This document shows positions 7,018 to 16,345 of a stretch of 34,889 bases of DNA, one piece after another. The stretch's first letter is position 1, and every line of letters begins with the position of its first letter. The DNA comes from an uncultured Bacillota bacterium. GTDB lineage: Bacteria; Bacillota; Clostridia; Christensenellales; UBA1242. The position numbers and the translations under genes were made by a program. Location: positions 1 to 34,889 of the forward strand of contig CAMUNJ010000001.1 in NCBI GenBank assembly GCA_947090235.1, given 5' to 3'. The notes under the pieces are model-generated. The model saw nothing but the letters and a program-made list of their open reading frames with translations, was not told the origin of the DNA and did no database searches.

Positions 7018-7059
7018 GTTCTCGTGGCGTAATTGTATAACGCAGTGCCCTCCTAAGGC
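7018..7059 (+). pseudogene. 5' half of a disrupted tRNA-Arg(CCU) gene (attL side)
   Basis: GTTCTCG-TG-GCGT-AATTGTATA-ACGC-A-GTGCC-CTCCTAA, then a non-tRNA sequence. It pairs with the 3' half at 16308-16345. Confidence 0.55.
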
Positions 7060-7199: not shown

Positions 7200-7274
7200 G
7201 TTCCCATAGTAAAGTGGATATTACAAACCCCTCCTAAGGGTTAGTCGGCTGTTCGAGTCAGCCTGGGAACACCA
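7200..7274 (+). tRNA. tRNA-Arg (anticodon CCU), element-borne, CCA encoded
   Basis: 75-nt cloverleaf folded by hand. Acceptor GTTCCCA/TGGGAAC; D-arm GTAA-AGTGGATA-TTAC; anticodon arm AACCC-CTCCTAA-GGGTT; variable AGTC; T-arm GGCTG-TTCGAGT-CAGCC; discriminator A; CCA. Confidence 0.9.
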
Positions 7275-7320: not shown

Positions 7321-8103
7321 ATGAATATAGAATTAAAACAATATCTTGACGACAAAACAATTTTATTAGATGTTTTAGACACTTATCCTAAACATATAAA
7401 AAAGTTAATCTCAGATAATGTGCCTTCAATAAATCAATACTTTGATGAAGAACAATCTTTACATGAAAAACATTTACAAATGAATTATTTCCCAACATAT
7501 AGTGGTAATAAATATTATCAAGCATACAACTCACTTGTTGATAAAATCGTTAATGACTTGTCCGAAAATTGTTATTATGCTTTATCCTTTCATGCTACAA
7601 GATTACTAAATGAGGAAATTACCGATATTAAAACCAATGGATTCAAGTTGTTTAATAAAAATGAACATAGCAAAAAACTAGACTTACTTAATGCTTATGG
7701 TTTTAATAAATCTGAAATTGATATTCTTAAAAATTGTTCTTATGTTGAAAATGGACAAAGAAGTAATAAAGTTTACTTTTGTCATGCTATTTCTACCTTG
7801 AATTTTGATAATGGGCTTAATCCTTTTTTTAGCACTTGGGGTGGAGAAATAACCTATTGGCATAAAGATATCCCTAGCAAGATTTTGAATAGACTTAAAT
7901 GCATAGGAATCCCTTGTTTAGTTATTGCTAAATTGCCTATATTCCAAATTACATCTGTTTCATACATGATTAAATCGCTTTTACATAACTTTATTACAAA
8001 ATCACAAAAAGAAGATATTGACACATCTTTAACTACAAATGATATTGTAATTTTAGATGTTATTCCTTTTGATAAATTTGCAGGCGATAAAGTCTTAATA
8101 TAA
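7321..8103 (+). CDS. hypothetical protein (element cargo)
   Basis: 260-aa ORF with a GAGG RBS. No signal peptide or TM segment seen and no family recognised. Motif string FHATRLLNEE...KVYFCHA...WGGEITYW noted. Confidence 0.55.
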   Translation: MNIELKQYLDDKTILLDVLDTYPKHIKKLISDNVPSINQYFDEEQSLHEKHLQMNYFPTYSGNKYYQAYNSLVDKIVNDLSENCYYALSFHATRLLNEEITDIKTNGFKLFNKNEHSKKLDLLNAYGFNKSEIDILKNCSYVENGQRSNKVYFCHAISTLNFDNGLNPFFSTWGGEITYWHKDIPSKILNRLKCIGIPCLVIAKLPIFQITSVSYMIKSLLHNFITKSQKEDIDTSLTTNDIVILDVIPFDKFAGDKVLI

Positions 8104-8191: not shown

Positions 8192-9613
8192 TTACAAATA
8201 TTTTGTCAACAATTCTTGTGATGCCTTAACATCTTTTGAAAAGTGTGTGTAAATTTTTAATGTTGTATTTTTGTCGGCATGACCTGCCATTTGTGCAACA
8301 CCATTTACAGGTGCACCATTTGTGATAAGTCTTGTTATCCATGTGTGTCGTATCTTGTGATTTGATACAACTGTGACATTTGCTTCCAAAAGGTATTTTT
8401 GTAATAAGTAGTTTAGGTATTGTGGGAACTTTGGTGTGCCATCAACATTACAAAAGATATAGCCTCTTTTATCAAACTTTTTGTCGGCTTTTTTAAGTTC
8501 TTCATATTTGTCTTTGAATAATTGTAATTTTTCTGCTAATAAATCACTTATAAATAATTTTCTTGCTGATTTTTCTGTTTTTGTATCTCTATCATAAACG
8601 CCATGTTTTGGAGTGTAAACTCTGTCTCTGCATACACTTAAAACACGATTTTCTAAATCAATATCTTCCCATTTAAGACCACACACTTCGGCAGTTCTGA
8701 GCCCTAATTGAGCCATAATATACAAAGGTATAGTATTCCAAATAAGATTGAGTGATTTTCCTTCATCACTTAACCTGTTATCCGCTTCCTTTAATGTCTC
8801 TATTAACTTGTCATATTCTTCACTTGTCAATATCTTTGCTTCTTCGGTTTTTCTTCCACCTATACTATCTTTTGTATAAACACTTGAAGCATAGTTTGAA
8901 GTCACTAATTCGTTTTTGATTGCATAATTGAAAATTGCACTTAATGTATGTTGGTATTTTAGTATTGTTTCTTTTGCATAACCCTTTTCAACTACAATCT
9001 TTTCAAAAAATTCTTTTATACTTATTTTTAATAAACTACAAATTTTCTCGGCACTACTATATGCAATAGGCTCTCCATGTGTAGCATAGTAAAATACAGG
9101 GCGTGATAATATTCCGTCTCTTTCCGCCTTTCTCGCACCGCCATTTGCTTTTATACATTCCTTAAACTCATCAAGTTTATATTCTTTTACTTTTGCGGTA
9201 ATAGTTTTGTAAGTATATTCGTTTAGATAAGTGATAAATTGTTGTATTTCGTGAGCCCTTAAATCTACAAATCTTACATCTCCAAAATATTCGGTCATTC
9301 TTTTAATGCAATCTTCTGATCGCAAAATATAGTTTAATGATACCCTGTGTTTAACATTTCGTAGCCACTCATTTGCTACTTGATTAAAACTTGCATTGCT
9401 TAACTTGTGGGTATGACCATTTTTATATTCTGTTTCCCATGTTTCTCCAAAAGCAATCGCAGCCTTTTTTGCTCTTTCGCCTGTAAGATTGTTAGGGTTC
9501 TTCCAAGTTGTATTAACAAACTTATCTCTACCTAAATAGTCCTTTACCTTTATTTGTATTCCGTATGTTATATGACCATCTTTTTTTGCTATTCTTTTTT
9601 CATATGTTGCCAT
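8192..9613 (-). CDS. int: tyrosine recombinase / integrase (Tn916-like architecture)
   Basis: 473 aa. Catalytic signature: LRTAEVCGLKWEDIDL (Arg box), HKIRHTWITRL (HxxR), GHADKNTTLKIYTH (Tyr). N-terminal arm-binding-like domain. Adjacent to the tRNA att site. Confidence 0.9.
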   Translation of the reverse strand: MATYEKRIAKKDGHITYGIQIKVKDYLGRDKFVNTTWKNPNNLTGERAKKAAIAFGETWETEYKNGHTHKLSNASFNQVANEWLRNVKHRVSLNYILRSEDCIKRMTEYFGDVRFVDLRAHEIQQFITYLNEYTYKTITAKVKEYKLDEFKECIKANGGARKAERDGILSRPVFYYATHGEPIAYSSAEKICSLLKISIKEFFEKIVVEKGYAKETILKYQHTLSAIFNYAIKNELVTSNYASSVYTKDSIGGRKTEEAKILTSEEYDKLIETLKEADNRLSDEGKSLNLIWNTIPLYIMAQLGLRTAEVCGLKWEDIDLENRVLSVCRDRVYTPKHGVYDRDTKTEKSARKLFISDLLAEKLQLFKDKYEELKKADKKFDKRGYIFCNVDGTPKFPQYLNYLLQKYLLEANVTVVSNHKIRHTWITRLITNGAPVNGVAQMAGHADKNTTLKIYTHFSKDVKASQELLTKYL

Positions 9614-9614
9614 T

Positions 9615-10028
9615 TTATAATACTCCTTTTAATTTCATTTGTTCTTCGGCTCTTTGCTGTGCCATTTTTAGATACATTTTGTGTGTTTCTTTTTCGCTTT
9701 CTTTGTAAAAGCATTTTGCAGCCCATGTTGTTTTCTTTTTCTTAGTGGGGAACCTATATTCAGCGGTCTCATATGGTATAAAACTATATCTAAACCCACT
9801 TTCTTTTTCTGCTATAAGTTCAGTAAGTTTTTCTAACAATAGTGTTTCAAGGTCTTTGCCTTCAAGGTATTTTCGGTTTCTTATAGACCTTTCAAACAAT
9901 CTTACTTCGCCTGAAGCCGTATCCCTAAATTGTGCTTTAAGTGTGTATATAATGGGTTTTTCGCCAATCATTTGCATTAAGCCATTGTCTAACACGCTTA
10001 CATATTTTTCTAAATTTTTAATTTCCAT
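9615..10028 (-). CDS. hypothetical protein co-transcribed with int
   Basis: 137-aa ORF whose stop lies 1 nt before the int start. No family recognised. Confidence 0.55.
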   Translation of the reverse strand: MEIKNLEKYVSVLDNGLMQMIGEKPIIYTLKAQFRDTASGEVRLFERSIRNRKYLEGKDLETLLLEKLTELIAEKESGFRYSFIPYETAEYRFPTKKKKTTWAAKCFYKESEKETHKMYLKMAQQRAEEQMKLKGVL

Positions 10029-11152: not shown

Positions 11153-11410
11153 CTATCTAATGGTTGCAAGTGTAGGGTAAAGTATATTGTATAACAAGTT
11201 TCCGCCAGCAATGTAGTTATTGTGGCTATCATTTGTATTTCTTCCATTAAAAATTGCTAGCAGTTTATTATTGTTATTGTATAAATACAAATAGTTTCCA
11301 TTTTGTCCTATTTTGCCTATTCTATTTCCATTGTTATCAAAGCAAATTGAAATAATACCTGCTTTTATATAGCCTATTCTTTTGCCTAGTTTATCATACA
11401 AATATAACAT
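11153..11410 (-). CDS. small repeat protein (four ~20-aa repeats; possibly 4-fold beta-flower type)
   Basis: Repeats LYLYDKLGKRIGYI / ISICFDNNGNRIGKI / LYLYNNNNKLLAIF / NNYIAGGNLLYNI. Start moved to ATG 11410 because the upstream TTG codons lie inside the terminator stem of the preceding gene. Confidence 0.45.
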   Translation of the reverse strand: MLYLYDKLGKRIGYIKAGIISICFDNNGNRIGKIGQNGNYLYLYNNNNKLLAIFNGRNTNDSHNNYIAGGNLLYNILYPTLATIR

Positions 11411-11414
11411 AAAA

Positions 11415-11445
11415 ACCGTCTCCAAATAATTATAACGGAGACGGT
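11415..11445 (-). terminator. intrinsic terminator after the SHOCT membrane gene
   Basis: Plus strand ACCGTCTCC-13 nt-GGAGACGGT. On the minus strand the stem is followed by TTTTT. Confidence 0.6.
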
Positions 11446-11459
11446 TATTTTTGATTGTC

Positions 11460-12473
11460 TTATAAATCTTTTAACAAACTTTCTTTTTTATTGTTATATT
11501 CTTCTTCGGTCAAAACTCCTGCATCAAAAAGTTCTTTCAGTTTTAGCAGTTTACTTGTAGCATCATTTGTTTCAGTTTTATTTTCTTCAAGTTTCTTTTC
11601 GCATTGTTTTTTAATGTGATCGGCATTATCAATAGCCTTTTGCTTTTCTTCTTTTTTAATAATTCTATTGAGTTCAAATGAATATTGTGTCTTGTATGTG
11701 AGCCAGATTATACCCACATAGAATATAAGTGCAAAGATATTTAGCATATATCGAACTGAAATTTCAGAGGTATCTCGTTCAAACATAGACGCTGCAAAGT
11801 AAATAATATTTGCAATAAAGCCATAAACCGCACTTAATGTTACATTACATTTTAGATTTTTTCTTGTCCCAATAATAATGGCTAAAATAACTTGTATTAT
11901 TTCGACTATTAAAATAAAGATAACTAAAAACAATGGACTAACCCCGAAAGGACTCTTTGTAATTGCTATATAAAGACTTTGTAGTATGCTCATAAAAACT
12001 ATACCTAAACTACAAAATGCTACATACATAAGCCTTATCTTTTGTGCTTGTTTAGACTCTTTATCAATGTGTTCTTTAAGTCTTTCATTATACACTAGTT
12101 CATATTCAGATTTTTTTGAGCAGAAAAATAAAATCGCTGAAACTAATAATAGGGTCATTTGAAACACACCCAAGCCTATATATGTTCCGCTTGATTTATT
12201 CAAGCCAAAAACATCATAGCATTGAAGGGCTATAAACATTATGTTTAATATTCCATATGTCCTTAAATTGCTTGTCCTTTCACCTATACAAGCCCTTATT
12301 CCAAATAATAAAAATATTACAGGCAATAATAATTGAATGTAATCAAAAGGGCTTTTTTCATATGGGAACATTGAATATATGTAAAACACAAATAACACTG
12401 CCAAAAACCAATATACAGCCCCTATGATTTGAATAATACCGCCTGCGAGAGATAAACCTGTTCGTTTTTTCAT
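11460..12473 (-). CDS. polytopic membrane protein (about 8 TM, two 4-TM halves) with C-terminal SHOCT domain
   Basis: Hydrophobic segments run throughout, and a coiled-coil-like linker follows. The C-terminal LKELFDAGVLTEEEYNNKKESLL matches the SHOCT short C-terminal domain pattern. Start at the second ATG (12473), 7 nt after GGAG. Confidence 0.7.
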   Translation of the reverse strand: MKKRTGLSLAGGIIQIIGAVYWFLAVLFVFYIYSMFPYEKSPFDYIQLLLPVIFLLFGIRACIGERTSNLRTYGILNIMFIALQCYDVFGLNKSSGTYIGLGVFQMTLLLVSAILFFCSKKSEYELVYNERLKEHIDKESKQAQKIRLMYVAFCSLGIVFMSILQSLYIAITKSPFGVSPLFLVIFILIVEIIQVILAIIIGTRKNLKCNVTLSAVYGFIANIIYFAASMFERDTSEISVRYMLNIFALIFYVGIIWLTYKTQYSFELNRIIKKEEKQKAIDNADHIKKQCEKKLEENKTETNDATSKLLKLKELFDAGVLTEEEYNNKKESLLKDL

Positions 12474-12531
12474 ATGCATACTCCTTTATTCAGTCATTAT
12501 ACTTTATTTCGCTCTAAAAAGGCAAACGATT

Positions 12532-12579
12532 TTAAGCCAACGGCTTAATTTTATGTAATTTTTTAAGCCATAGGCTAAA
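12532..12579. promoter_or_regulatory. two palindromic operator-like sites upstream of a small XRE gene
   Basis: TTAAGCC-aac-GGCTTAA (12532-12548, perfect) and TTAAGCC-ata-GGCTAAA (12563-12579). Centres are 31 bp apart. Confidence 0.55.
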
Positions 12580-12587
12580 ATTGGCAT

Positions 12588-12818
12588 ATGATATATGTTA
12601 AAGATAAAAACCTTGAAGATAGTATAAGACATAGACTTGTTGAAGCCATAAAGTTAAGCGGTATGACGCAAACCGAGATAGCAAAAAAGGCTCACATTAC
12701 AAGTGCAAGCCTTTCTGATTATATTCATAAAACTAAAATGCCGAGCATTGAAACCTTTGCTCTCATTTGTGATGCAATAGATGTTTCTGCTGATGAGATT
12801 TTAGGGTTACGAAACTAA
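12588..12818 (+). CDS. small XRE-family HTH protein
   Basis: 76 aa. MTQTEIAKKAHITSASLSDYIHKTKMPSIETFALICDAIDVSADEILG. Convergent with the KAP gene, with 2 nt between the stops. Confidence 0.7.
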   Translation: MIYVKDKNLEDSIRHRLVEAIKLSGMTQTEIAKKAHITSASLSDYIHKTKMPSIETFALICDAIDVSADEILGLRN

Positions 12819-12820
12819 TA

Positions 12821-14995
12821 TTATTTATTTTTCTTTTGCTTCAAATATTTCTTCATTTTAGATTTTGAAAATTGATCATCGTCATCATATTTCTCATATG
12901 ACATCATAAATGCCACCTTATACAAATTATCATTACTATCTAAATCAATATCTGGATTAAAATCTTTTGTTAAAATTTTATAAATTCTTTCAATGTCAAA
13001 ATCTTCGCTTAATTTGCTGCTAAACCCATAAGTCTTTTCACAACTGCCTGTAAGAAGTTGTCCACAAGAGCAAAAGTTTTTAATAAATTTTAGAATATTT
13101 GTTTCTTCTTTTAATAATTTTTCCACAAAATCATCACAAAGTTGTTTGTTTATAGTGTGCATTAGATAATAATACTGGTTATATTCAGGTTCATCAAAAT
13201 TTAATTTGTTAAAAACAAAATTTTGTAAATTGTCCTTTATCAAATTTTCAATTAGTTTTGTCTCTTCAATAGTTAATATAGGATTGTCATTATTCTCTCC
13301 ATTGTTTGATTTCACTCTACCATTTTCTATTTGAAGTGATCGCAAAAATTCTACCTTAACTAAATTTACCTCTCCATTTTCATAAAATTCTTTTATAAAA
13401 TTAAAGACATTCATGGTATCTTTATTTTTCTTCAAATAGTTTCGAAGAATATAAGATATTTGTCTATCGCAATCAGTTGAAAATGCTTCAAATTCAACTT
13501 TTTCTTTTTGTATTTCATTTGTAATTTCCATTAACCAGTTTATAATATCGACAACTCTATTTTTGCTCAATTTATTTTCTACATAATAAGCTATGTAATA
13601 CATAAAAGGAGACAACTGTTTTTGTTGGTTTAGCTTCCTTACAAACGCAATAAAATCTTCTTTATTGTATTTTTCAATGATTTCTTCTATTTGATTTTTA
13701 TTATATAGTAATTCATTTTCATTGAATTGAAAATAGTTATCAAAGTTTTCTTCAATATACATAAAGCCCCTTATTTTAGCTTCTTGATAATGATAAGTTG
13801 TATAGCCCCAAAATTTACTATCGACTTGCCAAACTTTTGGAAATAAAAAACTCAATGCTTCATTTATGAAATCTAAATCTTCTTTTGTAAATTGATTTTT
13901 TAATGTATCGTAAAATTTATTAAGAGATTCTCTTACTTGTTTTCTCTTACTATCATCTCTTTCGTATGGAGAATATGTGCCATTTAATAATTCTTTGTTA
14001 TTTGAAACAAAATTATAAACTTGTGGGAATTTAAGTTCTAGTAATGTTATAATGCAAAAATCATGAAAATCAACATTGTCTTTTAATGCTTCAAATTTTA
14101 AGTTAAACACATTACAAAACCTATTTACATCTCTTAAAGTTATAAATTGTTGCCAAAATCCAGTTCTTGCAAAATCGCTATTTCTTGAAGTTAAAAATTC
14201 ATTTAATTTGGCACAACTTTTGTTAAGATTATCTATTAGGGCTTGTGTGATTTTTATTGGCGACACTTCAGGTATATTAATAGGTAATTGAACTATTTTT
14301 TCTAAATAAGTCTCTGCATGTTCCTTTTGCGAATTTTGTAAAGCAGACACTATAACTTTCTTATCCATAGATAATACATATATTACATTCTCAAAATTCC
14401 CTACGAGTTTTACCAACTGAAAGATTTGGCATATTTCAATATCATTAAGCCTATCCACATCATCAATAAATATAACAATCTTCTTTTCTAACTTCGTTAA
14501 TGCTTTTGATATTTTATTTTTTATTTCTTCTAACGATTTACTATAAGTAAGATTATTTAATGTTTCACCATATTCTTTTACTAATGGAGCAATAATAGTG
14601 GCGAATGGCGATATAACAGGCACATATTTCCCCAAAGTGAATATTTGTCCAGCTCTCTTAAAAAAATTTCCAAGTTTTGAAAACAGCTTATGGTAATCAA
14701 CCATATCTAACTGTATATAAAACTCCTTAAAAAAACATTGCAACAGTTCGTCTTGTCCTTTGAAATTCCATGGGTTAAAATGAATTGTTTTATATCCTTT
14801 TTTAGATAGTTCTTTTGATGCTATATTTATAATAGATGTTTTTCCAGATCCCCATTTACCATATAATCCTATAGTTAAAGATTCTTTGTTGCTGTATGAA
14901 GTTATGTTTGCTACAAAATTGTCTATAAATTTTTTTCTTCCTAAAATATCTTCTTCAATCTTTTCTATTGGCTTATCAACACTTAAATTTTCCAT
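12821..14995 (-). CDS. KAP-family P-loop NTPase
   Basis: Walker A GLYGKWGSGKTS is preceded by DILGRKKFIDNF, typical of KAP N-termini. Walker B-like VIFIDDVDRL. A long alpha-helical C-terminal region follows. Start at ATG 14995 with AAGGAGA RBS. Confidence 0.85.
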   Translation of the reverse strand: MENLSVDKPIEKIEEDILGRKKFIDNFVANITSYSNKESLTIGLYGKWGSGKTSIINIASKELSKKGYKTIHFNPWNFKGQDELLQCFFKEFYIQLDMVDYHKLFSKLGNFFKRAGQIFTLGKYVPVISPFATIIAPLVKEYGETLNNLTYSKSLEEIKNKISKALTKLEKKIVIFIDDVDRLNDIEICQIFQLVKLVGNFENVIYVLSMDKKVIVSALQNSQKEHAETYLEKIVQLPINIPEVSPIKITQALIDNLNKSCAKLNEFLTSRNSDFARTGFWQQFITLRDVNRFCNVFNLKFEALKDNVDFHDFCIITLLELKFPQVYNFVSNNKELLNGTYSPYERDDSKRKQVRESLNKFYDTLKNQFTKEDLDFINEALSFLFPKVWQVDSKFWGYTTYHYQEAKIRGFMYIEENFDNYFQFNENELLYNKNQIEEIIEKYNKEDFIAFVRKLNQQKQLSPFMYYIAYYVENKLSKNRVVDIINWLMEITNEIQKEKVEFEAFSTDCDRQISYILRNYLKKNKDTMNVFNFIKEFYENGEVNLVKVEFLRSLQIENGRVKSNNGENNDNPILTIEETKLIENLIKDNLQNFVFNKLNFDEPEYNQYYYLMHTINKQLCDDFVEKLLKEETNILKFIKNFCSCGQLLTGSCEKTYGFSSKLSEDFDIERIYKILTKDFNPDIDLDSNDNLYKVAFMMSYEKYDDDDQFSKSKMKKYLKQKKNK

Positions 14996-15072
14996 AGTTT
15001 TCTCCTTACTTACATTATAGCACACTTAGCCCCTTAGTTTATATAAAAATTATAACTTTGGGGCTATTATTT

Positions 15073-15116
15073 TGCAAATAGGGACTGTCACAAACTTTCT
15101 CGCCACTGCAAATAGG
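15073..15116. repeat. direct repeat TGCAAATAGG x2 in the KAP-Rep intergenic region
   Basis: Identical 10-mers at 15073-15082 and 15107-15116, next to the inverted repeat TAGCCCC (15027-15033) / GGGGCTA (15060-15066). Confidence 0.6.
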
Positions 15117-15188
15117 TCTAAAATGGCTGAGATAAACTATTTAATATAAATTTATTATATTAAATGTCAATGCTCCTTAAAAGGCAGA

Positions 15189-16061
15189 TTATATAGGTGT
15201 TCGCTTACCTAATCCATAAGACTTTGTTCGTTCTTTTTTATAATACTCTTTACAATAGTATAGGTTGTTGCCCCTGTGAGAGTGCATAGGATTAAGATAT
15301 ACATTTTTTCTTTCAAATACATAACTATTTTCTTTAAGGTATTTTTTCACATTTTCATAAGTATCCGTGTGAATTACAGGCTTTTTAAGCCCTTTTGAAT
15401 ATCTATAAAGGTTTTGTCCAGTTGGTAGTTCCATTTGCATTAGTGCTTTATAGTGCATATGACTATTTTTATTTGTCACTTCATTTGATAAGTGAGGAGT
15501 CACATAATAGTATACATCTTTTTTAGTTTTAGGTTTTTTCCCAAACTTTATAAACCCATGACCCCATATCTCTGCTATTATTGTGTCAGGTATATAAACA
15601 ATCTTTTTAGACTCATTAAAGAAAATTATTGCGTGTATATGATAGCCACCATTATCTAATTCAAGTGTGTTTATATATTCTATTGTTCCAAATTCAGTTA
15701 TTCTTCGCCTTAATCGTTTCATAAAGGACTTAAAATCTTCGTTTATTTTCTTCATATCTAATGTCTTTTCTCTGTAAGTGAACGTTATCAAAAGTATATG
15801 ATTTAAATTTACAGTATTCTCTTTAATTAAATCTTGTAGTTTAATATTGCTTTCAAGCAAACTATAAAGGCTTTCGCCTCGTTTTGCAGTTTTCTTTTCT
15901 TCTGTGATTTCGCCTGTTTGAATATTAACTCTTTTACCATTTCCAATTCTTCTTGAAACAGGTTTACGATTACACATATTAATATTGTGTAATATTACTT
16001 CATCTCTAACGACTCTTACTTTAACAAGGTCGCTTTCTTTTATTAAATTATTCTTTTCCAT
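15189..16061 (-). CDS. rep: HUH-type rolling-circle replication initiator (Rep)
   Basis: 290 aa. Motif 1-like LLITFTY, HUH motif GGYHIHAIIFF, Tyr-rich segment VYYYVTPHL, and LYRYSKGLKKP near the C-terminus. Confidence 0.6.
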   Translation of the reverse strand: MEKNNLIKESDLVKVRVVRDEVILHNINMCNRKPVSRRIGNGKRVNIQTGEITEEKKTAKRGESLYSLLESNIKLQDLIKENTVNLNHILLITFTYREKTLDMKKINEDFKSFMKRLRRRITEFGTIEYINTLELDNGGYHIHAIIFFNESKKIVYIPDTIIAEIWGHGFIKFGKKPKTKKDVYYYVTPHLSNEVTNKNSHMHYKALMQMELPTGQNLYRYSKGLKKPVIHTDTYENVKKYLKENSYVFERKNVYLNPMHSHRGNNLYYCKEYYKKERTKSYGLGKRTPI

Positions 16062-16298: not shown

Positions 16299-16345
16299 CC
16301 CTCCTAAGGCAAAGATTCCCGGTTAGACTCCGGGCGGGAACACCA
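16299..16345 (+). pseudogene. 3' half of the disrupted tRNA-Arg(CCU) gene (attR side)
   Basis: CCCTCCTAAGGC core, then GGCAA-AGATT-CCCGG-TTAGACT-CCGGG-CGGGAAC-A-CCA. No matching 5' half lies locally. Confidence 0.55.

Follow-up and report, generated by a model that had tools for sequence, protein, structure and literature searches.

A PifA-like KAP NTPase in an exchangeable gene slot of a small integrative element from gut Clostridia

The element and the exchanged gene beside rep

The window, i.e. the whole 34,889-nt stretch of DNA analysed here, carries an integrative element of about 9.25 kb which is bounded by two copies of a 10-bp attachment (att) core, CCTCCTAAGG, at 7049-7058 and 16300-16309, inside a tRNA-Arg(CCU) gene. 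When the flanks were joined in silico at both core copies, tRNA-Arg(cct) was restored (ARAGORN). The gene order in the element is orf260, int, orf137, an xis-like gene, and the genes for a 200-aa XRE regulator (XRE200), an 85-aa mini-protein, a protein with eight transmembrane (TM) segments and a SHOCT domain (the 8-TM protein), a 76-aa XRE regulator (XRE76), a 724-aa KAP P-loop NTPase and Rep (Table 1). A sequence-only reading of the same DNA had joined the mini-protein, the 8-TM protein, XRE76 and the KAP protein into one candidate defence module. These four open reading frames (ORFs) exist where they had been placed and are accessory cargo of the element, and they are independent units, not one defence system. 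Related loci or contigs used in the comparison are numbered L and homologous proteins are numbered P.

The KAP family was reportedly defined by Aravind et al. in 2004. The window protein matches Pfam KAP_NTPase with an E-value of 8.5e-48, and in 15 homologues, PifA of the F plasmid included, neither Walker A (GxWGSGKTS; GKWGSGKTS in the window) nor Walker B (DDxDR) varies. Its length of 724 aa had been given correctly, and the region end at 15025 was found to be an upstream GTG of the open frame, the ATG being at 14995. The protein, which had been proposed to be soluble, has no TM segment: no stretch of 19 residues reached a hydropathy of 1.6, and the maximum of 1.49 falls on residues 118-136, in the part that separates the two Walker motifs.

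The best PADLOC model for the KAP protein is PifA (261 bits, E 5.1e-78, residues 12-653 against model positions 3-667 of 720), followed by PDC-S20 (71 bits) and QatA (58 bits). The F-type PifA used for comparison, annotated as 'phage T7 exclusion protein' and adjoining pifC, scores 963 bits on the PifA model. BLASTP of the window protein against F PifA gave 22% identity over residues 5-332 (E 2e-27), which is the only part with pairwise significance, and hhalign of a 14-member profile of the KAP clade against F PifA gave 99.85% probability over 627 columns. A PDB sequence search with the KAP protein found nothing. Judged by these comparisons the protein is a distant, full-length, TM-less homologue of F-plasmid PifA, and because PADLOC PifA is its best match it is filed as a new distant member of that known family. 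The gene combination had not been recognised as a named system; the KAP protein itself belongs to a named family. The gene has its own promoter region without a regulator gene upstream, and tblastn of F PifC against the window gave a best E-value of 0.35, i.e. no PifC homologue.

PifA is a KAP member without TM helices (10.64898/2026.03.01.708804). It aborts T7 infection by sensing gp1.2 and gp10, which leads to membrane depolarisation and nucleotide leakage (PMC8125068; 10.64898/2026.03.01.708804). Protection of E. faecalis against phage is also conferred by single-gene KAP NTPases, whose C-terminal regions are diverse, and it depends on Walker B (10.1101/2025.10.07.681051).

The position of the KAP gene beside rep is called slot A here. 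Sister elements in L013-L016 align by blastn at 87-90% identity over window positions 8100-12805/12809, i.e. from int through the XRE76 stop. Identity returns at 14990-15014 and continues through rep (77-93% in L013-L016, up to 96% counting L019), and between these conserved flanks L013-L015 and L016 carry unrelated ORFs of 252, 253 or 288 aa instead of KAP. At the level of single bases, conservation on the rep side extends from the Rep stop over the inverted repeat at 15027-15066 and the sequence TGcTATAAT and breaks off at the ribosome-binding site; at the opposite boundary the alignment picks up again inside the final codons of XRE76, which is convergent. In sister elements which retain XRE76, the 8-TM gene and the mini-protein gene, unrelated genes stand precisely in the place of the KAP ORF, and this speaks directly against the single four-gene module of the sequence-only reading.

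In L019/L020, where Rep is 97% and the integrase 95% identical to those of the window, slot A holds a 274-aa protein with two TM helices. Further variants were found via the mini-protein: L022/L039 have a 262-aa protein, L040 has another protein of the 288-aa family, L041 has a 644-aa HATPase_c_3 and HSDR_N_2 protein resembling a GHKL ATPase and a restriction endonuclease (REase), and L042 has a 611-aa OLD-family protein with AAA_15/AAA_21 and TOPRIM domains, which matches PADLOC AriA at 9e-24 and also the Old and GajA models. Slot A is empty in L043. The tally is seven unrelated occupant kinds, four of which are unrecognised families (252/253, 288, 274 and 262 aa). With its sharp boundaries, unrelated occupants and some recognisable defence genes, slot A is a mobile-element defence hotspot. 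The KAP protein, which had been proposed as a defence candidate, is a good anti-phage candidate by its homology to PifA and by the OLD-family and GHKL/REase-like proteins at the same position in related elements.

Within the conserved rep-to-slot spacer there is an inverted repeat at 15027-15066 (TAGCCCC-N26-GGGGCTA) and an extended -10 element, TGcTATAAT (15014-15022). Repeated copies of TGCAAATAGG lie together with the inverted repeat within 15027-15116, between rep and slot A, and are kept in all close variants; the inverted repeat and the TGCAAATAGG repeats may serve as Rep origin as well as promoter context. At the other end, the slot A gene and the small helix-turn-helix (HTH) gene are always tail-to-tail, within about 15 nt or with an overlap of a few bases (window 12818-12823; L013, L015, L041), and in the window the prediction gave no terminator separating KAP from XRE76. 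With such ends and no predicted terminator, transcripts of the cargo gene would extend across the regulator gene in antisense, and transcriptional interference could couple the slot A gene and the XRE76 unit.

The nearest KAP relatives (P0002, 69% identity; P0009 and L001, 55-56%; P0013, 46%) either directly follow the integrases of different elements or stand in other contexts. None of these relatives has an 8-TM or mini-protein homologue nearby, L001-L008 are without such homologues, and the genes downstream of KAP across five different contexts have no mutual similarity and reveal no hidden shared partner. A Veillonella KAP homologue adjoins a gene pair of AAA_21 and RloB. The distribution of the KAP gene is patchy; a sample of 398 genomes of the class gave 3 carriers, none of them in the same genus, family or order. 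For the mini-protein, 399 genomes of the class gave, beyond the window's own genome, just three weak repeat-type matches, two of them in very long open frames and one interrupted by a stop. Neither KAP nor the mini-protein was found in 5 other searched genomes of the window's genus. Because the mini-protein is too rare and KAP occurs in 3 of 398 genomes, the test of co-occurrence rests on loci and not on genomes.

Homologues of the 8-TM protein are few, and their contigs L013-L016 have the same backbone and no KAP. XRE76, the 8-TM gene and the mini-protein gene are intact without KAP in four distinct sister elements (five loci, L013-L016), in L022/L039 and in L041. The co-occurrence that had been asked for was seen in part: the genes are together in the window, in L009-L011 and partly in L012, and apart in L001-L008, L013-L016, L022/L039 and L041. 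As each persists without the other across loci, KAP and the membrane protein do not form the sensor-effector pair that had been suggested.

The membrane protein, its regulator and the mini-protein

The 8-TM gene occupies a second variable position, slot B. A SHOCT domain (PF09851) was found at residues 310-336 (E 1.4e-8, 34.7 bits against a cut-off of 27), and Kyte-Doolittle hydropathy gave seven segments of at least 1.6 and one weaker segment at about 72-90. The earlier description as a two-times-4-TM SHOCT protein was right for the SHOCT domain and the eight TM segments, and for the internal duplication the halves match by BLAST at an E-value of 0.002 with composition correction off, a weak and composition-prone match. 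An AlphaFold2 model has eight helices long enough to cross a membrane, one further long helix and a helical hairpin for SHOCT, at low confidence (predicted local distance difference test, pLDDT, 62; predicted template-modelling score, pTM, 0.37), too poor for a fold search. The protein has no match in PADLOC, in NCBIfam or, with a profile, in the PDB, and Pfam gives SHOCT alone. SHOCT is proposed as an oligomerisation module (PMC3581485).

The N-terminal 4-TM domain is rare, with 40 matches in 1.84 billion representatives and SHOCT in 3 of the 22 scanned, and it is element-borne in the loci examined. In L010, L012, L022 and L041 slot B carries a homologous N-terminal 4-TM domain with different C-termini. 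The whole 8-TM gene is replaced in L019/L020 by Nmad3 (PF18754, 3.8e-43) and a 106-aa protein; Nmad3 is also found in L040 and L043, and an unrecognised 441-aa gene in L042. Among elements without KAP the 8-TM gene has a ratio of nonsynonymous to synonymous substitution rates (dN/dS) of 0.16-0.35, and XRE76 one of 0.01-0.02 (0.01-0.09 overall). Since both genes are under purifying selection in KAP-less elements, they are maintained without KAP.

XRE76 and the 8-TM gene diverge from a 108-bp spacer, which contains two palindromes of the form TTAAGCC-N3-GGCTTAA just upstream of a TTGCCT-18-TATAAT site. Both had been noted before; the one at 12532-12548 is perfect (TTAAGCC-AAC-GGCTTAA), and the one at 12563-12579 has one mismatch (GGCTAAA). 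Allowing up to 2 mismatches, no further copy was found within the element, the KAP promoter region included. As the putative operators lie solely in the XRE76/8-TM spacer and not at the KAP promoter, XRE76 would be a regulator of the membrane operon and not of KAP, and its proposed role as private regulator of a KAP module was rejected.

Of the four repeats that had been described in the mini-protein, two are clear hYhYDxxGxxIGxI units (DKLG at 6 and DNNG at 25) and two are degenerate, of which one is partial. The longest ORF is 90 aa from a TTG at 11425. The AlphaFold2 model (pLDDT 74.5, pTM 0.63) has 8 short strands in four hairpins and a C-terminal helix, with the [DNEQ]xxG motif at 2 of the 4 hairpin tips. 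In Foldseek the top-probability match is 1zxu (probability 0.95, template-modelling score 0.48, at an E-value of 0.18), and a profile search of the PDB gave designed 'Bagel' repeat proteins at 2.4e-6. Pfam gave no match to the window protein at E <=0.01, and two homologues match Bflower/Bflower_2 below the gathering cut-off (P0133, 19.4 bits against 25; P0135, 13.8 bits).

The beta-flower families PF21784/PF21785 (Durairaj et al. 2023, PMC10584680) have four hairpin repeats, [DNEQ]xxG tips and a C-terminal hydrophobic helix, a layout which the mini-protein would share by its model, and 1zxu, a Tubby/scramblase-like structure, is named there as the nearest solved relative. They differ in that the window protein is without a Pfam match and its homologues stay below the gathering cut-offs. 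The mini-protein is probably a 4-fold beta-flower.

Homologues of the mini-protein are present in 11 of 12 element variants regardless of the upstream gene, and missing from L012. A terminator-like hairpin with a T-run ends just before its ATG; the 3' arm holds a GGAG ribosome-binding site, and the loop includes TATAAT. A hairpin was predicted at this junction in 11 of 11 folded variants (weak in L043), and its stem extension changes on both sides between groups (CCG/CGG vs AAA/TTT). With its presence in 11 of 12 variants and its own conserved hairpin, the mini-protein behaves as a separate conserved backbone unit. The L016 allele (L016 10060-10326) has a dN of about 0.53 and a dN/dS of 0.7-1.0 against the window within flanks that are otherwise 87% identical, and because of this divergent allele within conserved flanks the gene also seems to recombine as a cassette between conserved junctions.

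Some homologues were found in a different form. P0133, P0135 and P0136 (L022 8001-8351) are 'long' forms of 116-124 aa which derive from gene calls with TGA read as Trp; with table 11 they stop at 85 aa. P0140 (121 aa, on a 733-bp contig) joins the first approximately 55 mini-protein residues to a CysS_C anticodon-binding domain (PF23493, 1.3e-7), and is probably an assembly chimera or a junction beside cysS.

Interpretation of the accessory genes and related systems

We consider it likely that the KAP protein is a stand-alone PifA-type abortive-infection or exclusion cassette in slot A, and that the other accessory genes are separate units. The slot A gene would be driven by the conserved backbone promoter beside rep, and the KAP protein, by homology, would act alone as an abortive-infection or exclusion protein. 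The variable helical C-terminal half would recognise a phage product; the NTPase would then change its state, after which the protein would target the cytoplasmic membrane, with depolarisation and nucleotide leakage as reported for PifA; the phage would be stopped at the cost of the cell. XRE76 probably binds both palindromes and would thereby repress itself and the 8-TM SHOCT gene. As for the 8-TM SHOCT protein, our best guess is an effector under repression which acts at the membrane, either in exclusion or as a toxin, and forms oligomers via SHOCT. The mini-protein gene is a backbone gene with its own conserved upstream hairpin, apart from both other units.

Several points weigh against this explanation. 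The KAP protein shares only 18-22% identity with F PifA, the window lacks the pifC repressor known from the F operon, and the PifA trigger (T7 gp1.2/gp10) is meaningless in this host. The anti-phage function of the KAP protein and its close clade is one that we infer from homology, most slot A occupants lack a recognisable function, and one tested enterococcal KAP does not act by abortive infection (10.1101/2025.10.07.681051). For PifA, action at the membrane has been reported, as has its sequestration there by FxsA, a membrane protein (PMC8125068), which is a precedent for an interaction between a KAP and a membrane protein. Furthermore, KAP and an 8-TM homologue, usually with the mini-protein, are together in three divergent lineages, namely the window, L009-L011 and L012. 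In the distant branch of L009-L011 KAP is in slot A, with identities to the window of 53-54% for Rep, 45% for KAP, 35% for the 8-TM N-domain and 51% for the mini-protein; in the likewise distant L012, also with KAP in slot A, Rep is 56%, KAP 52% and XRE76 81% identical and the mini-protein is absent. Because KAP holds the slot in two distant branches it may be an old occupant which was later replaced, and this is the main residual argument for a link with the 8-TM gene. An ancestral functional link between KAP and the 8-TM protein, lost later, may also have existed.

The strongest form of such a link, one four-gene defence system with KAP as sensor and the membrane protein as executor, is in our view highly unlikely. 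The adjacency of the genes, their co-occurrence in the window, L009-L011 and partly L012, and the FxsA-sequestered membrane action of PifA would fit it, but unrelated genes exactly replace KAP in 87-90% identical sisters that keep the other three genes intact, with the 8-TM gene and XRE76 under purifying selection there. The nearest KAP relatives (46-69%) are without such neighbours, the 8-TM gene is itself swapped for Nmad3 or the 441-aa gene in other variants, and KAP and the 8-TM operon are separate transcription units with operators at the 8-TM operon only. It is also very improbable that KAP is an NTPase for maintenance or replication of the element and not a defence gene: sisters with 96-97% identical rep regions carry unrelated genes in its place and one variant carries none, and its relatives adjoin integrases of elements whose replicases differ, or lie in chromosomal neighbourhoods of the defence type. 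What speaks for a maintenance role is that KAP immediately adjoins rep and the putative origin-like repeats, together with the view that phage restriction may not be the primary function of PifA (10.1101/2025.10.07.681051). A part for KAP in a filamentous-phage-like assembly apparatus was considered since Rep is of the G2P type, and was rejected as unrelated genes replace KAP.

For the other three genes, a KAP-independent, stand-alone membrane effector under repressor control (superinfection-exclusion, abortive-infection or toxin-like), made up of XRE76, the 8-TM SHOCT protein and the mini-protein, is compatible with a PifA-type KAP cassette and is a tentative but quite possible reading. The operators and XRE76 (dN/dS 0.01-0.09) are tightly conserved, the second variable slot holds either the 8-TM family, Nmad3 with the 106-aa protein or the 441-aa gene, the N-terminal domain is rare and element-borne in the loci examined, and SHOCT is a proposed oligomerisation module (PMC3581485). 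The lack of a match in PADLOC, NCBIfam, the PDB, or Pfam beyond SHOCT, and the low-confidence structure model, weaken it, and since the divergence of the 8-TM family roughly tracks that of the backbone, the family could have a backbone function. Somewhat doubtful is a service of the 8-TM protein and the mini-protein to the life cycle of the element (envelope-associated transfer, entry exclusion of sister elements, or regulation) in place of host defence. The mini-protein is absent in L012 and the 8-TM gene in some variants, and the strong divergence of the L016 mini-protein allele (dN/dS 0.7-1.0) is unusual for a core function; against this stand the presence of the mini-protein in 11 of 12 variants irrespective of the adjoining cargo, the upstream hairpin and junction kept across all variants, and the relation of the beta-flower fold to lipid-binding Tubby/scramblase-like domains (PMC10584680).

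A more speculative idea, which we regard as improbable, is that the small HTH gene, a variable gene and the beta-flower gene form a new regulated accessory module. The mini-protein would then be the common partner (sensor, membrane adaptor or anti-repressor) of interchangeable effectors, i.e. the 8-TM SHOCT protein, Nmad3 with the 106-aa protein, or the 441-aa gene, and the unrecognised slot A families would be new single-gene anti-phage proteins expressed from one cassette promoter.

The stand-alone KAP cassette can be compared with several known systems. PifA, responsible for F exclusion of phage T7 in E. coli, is like the window protein a KAP-family P-loop NTPase that has no TM helices, measures about 720-740 aa and is borne on a mobile element; the two are collinear over about 630 columns, and PifA is the best PADLOC model. 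The differences are the 18-22% identity, the Gram-positive-type Clostridia host and the absence of a pifC repressor or pifCAB operon. The proposed PADLOC search of ten element proteins gave PifA for KAP, and nothing for the 8-TM protein. EF_KAP and the gut-metagenome KAPs (10.1101/2025.10.07.681051), likened here by description, are stand-alone NTPases with a C-terminal region, located beside recombinases on mobile DNA of gut Firmicutes, and Walker motifs are required for their activity. EF_KAP differs in having two predicted TM helices and no abortive infection, whereas the window protein has no TM helix.

QatA of the Qat system shares the KAP NTPase core (PADLOC 1.6e-16; NCBIfam QatA 62 bits), but the window protein is far under the NCBIfam cut-off of 600 bits, and no QatB, QatC or QatD was found by PADLOC among the ten element proteins. 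Tmn, which had been cited as a KAP NTPase, is a P-loop NTPase defence protein acting at the membrane. It differs in being assigned by its preprint to the YobI family and not to KAP, in having TM helices inserted in the P-loop domain and in causing plasmolysis without depolarisation (10.64898/2026.03.01.708804). The hotspots of phage P2, the P4 satellite and small satellites (PMC9122126, PMC13586616, PMC10803314) resemble the present element in their conserved backbone and sharply bounded variable slots with diverse anti-phage genes. Here, in contrast, there is a tyrosine integrase, a microvirus/inovirus-type rolling-circle Rep and an own tRNA, the host Clostridia have genomes of about 0.9 Mb, and a single-gene slot is served by a backbone promoter.

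Defence hotspots on mobile elements and the PifA family are already known. New, as variations, are the promoter-equipped slot on a small Rep/Int element, the four unrecognised occupant families and the conserved beta-flower gene. The supposed four-gene system gives way to a PifA-type stand-alone NTPase in a promoter-equipped single-gene slot of gut Clostridia, and slot A yields a short list of candidate defence genes, with four unrecognised families at the position that PifA-like, OLD-family and GHKL/REase-like genes hold in other variants. A Gram-positive-type PifA relative would be a tractable model for how TM-less KAP NTPases work, and the rare 8-TM SHOCT family and the beta-flower mini-protein are the leads remaining from the element.

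Remaining features of the element

The coordinates of all features are collected in Table 1. Variation is also seen at a third slot, between the element tRNA and int. In the window this slot holds orf260, for which no Pfam or PADLOC match was found; in L019/L020 (L019 15376-16059) it holds a HEPN AbiU2 gene (PF18734, 2e-14), and in L013-L015 it is empty, with int abutting the tRNA.

Table 1. Genes and sites of the integrative element, with positions in the window.
Feature	Position	Strand	Remarks
Left att core	7049..7058	.	Anticodon loop of the split host tRNA-Arg; joined flanks, ARAGORN
tRNA-Arg(CCU), intact, element-borne	7200..7274	+	ARAGORN; within the att-bounded element
orf260, cargo of the third variable slot	7321..8103	+	Absent in L013-L015
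Tyrosine integrase (int)	8192..9613	-	Pfam Phage_integrase 1.6e-28; 95% identical to L019 integrase
orf137	9615-10028		Downstream of the xis-like gene
Xis-like protein, 62 aa	10047..10235	-	Position and presence in all element variants
XRE200, main element regulator, XRE family, 200 aa	10460..11062	+	HTH_3 8e-10; divergent from the xis-int genes
Mini-protein, 85 aa, probable 4-fold beta-flower, backbone gene	11153..11410	-	ATG start
Hairpin with T-run	11413..11445	-	Ends just before the mini-protein ATG; minimum free energy -17 kcal/mol, z = -4.0
8-TM protein with C-terminal SHOCT, 337 aa, slot B	11460..12473	-	Start common to homologues
Promoter-like site for the 8-TM gene, TTGCCT-18-TATAAT	12496..12525	-	Consensus scan, 10/12 matches; kept in L012-L016
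Two putative 7-3-7 palindromic operators	12532..12579	.	Conserved in five loci, L012-L016
XRE76, 76 aa, divergent from the 8-TM gene, tail-to-tail with KAP	12588..12818	+	HTH_3 7.5e-11
PifA-like KAP P-loop NTPase, 724 aa, slot A cassette	12821..14995	-	ATG start behind AAGGAG
Rep-to-slot spacer, conserved	15014..15188	-	Promoter-like sites 15170-15143 and 15077-15049
Rolling-circle Rep (HUH, ORF2/G2P type)	15189..16061	-	PF23343 4.3e-14; PHROG 3419; distant microvirus Rep matches
Right att core	16300..16309	.	Displaced 3' half of the host tRNA-Arg is 16300-16345

The 62-aa Xis-like protein has no match in a Pfam search. Scans of metagenome and viral contigs with a Rep profile for more element variants gave almost nothing usable. 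Complete genomes of the window's genus are only about 0.8-1.0 Mb. Just beyond the rep end of the sister element in L019, a 1296-aa protein with a weak NACHT match is encoded at L019 4797-8687.

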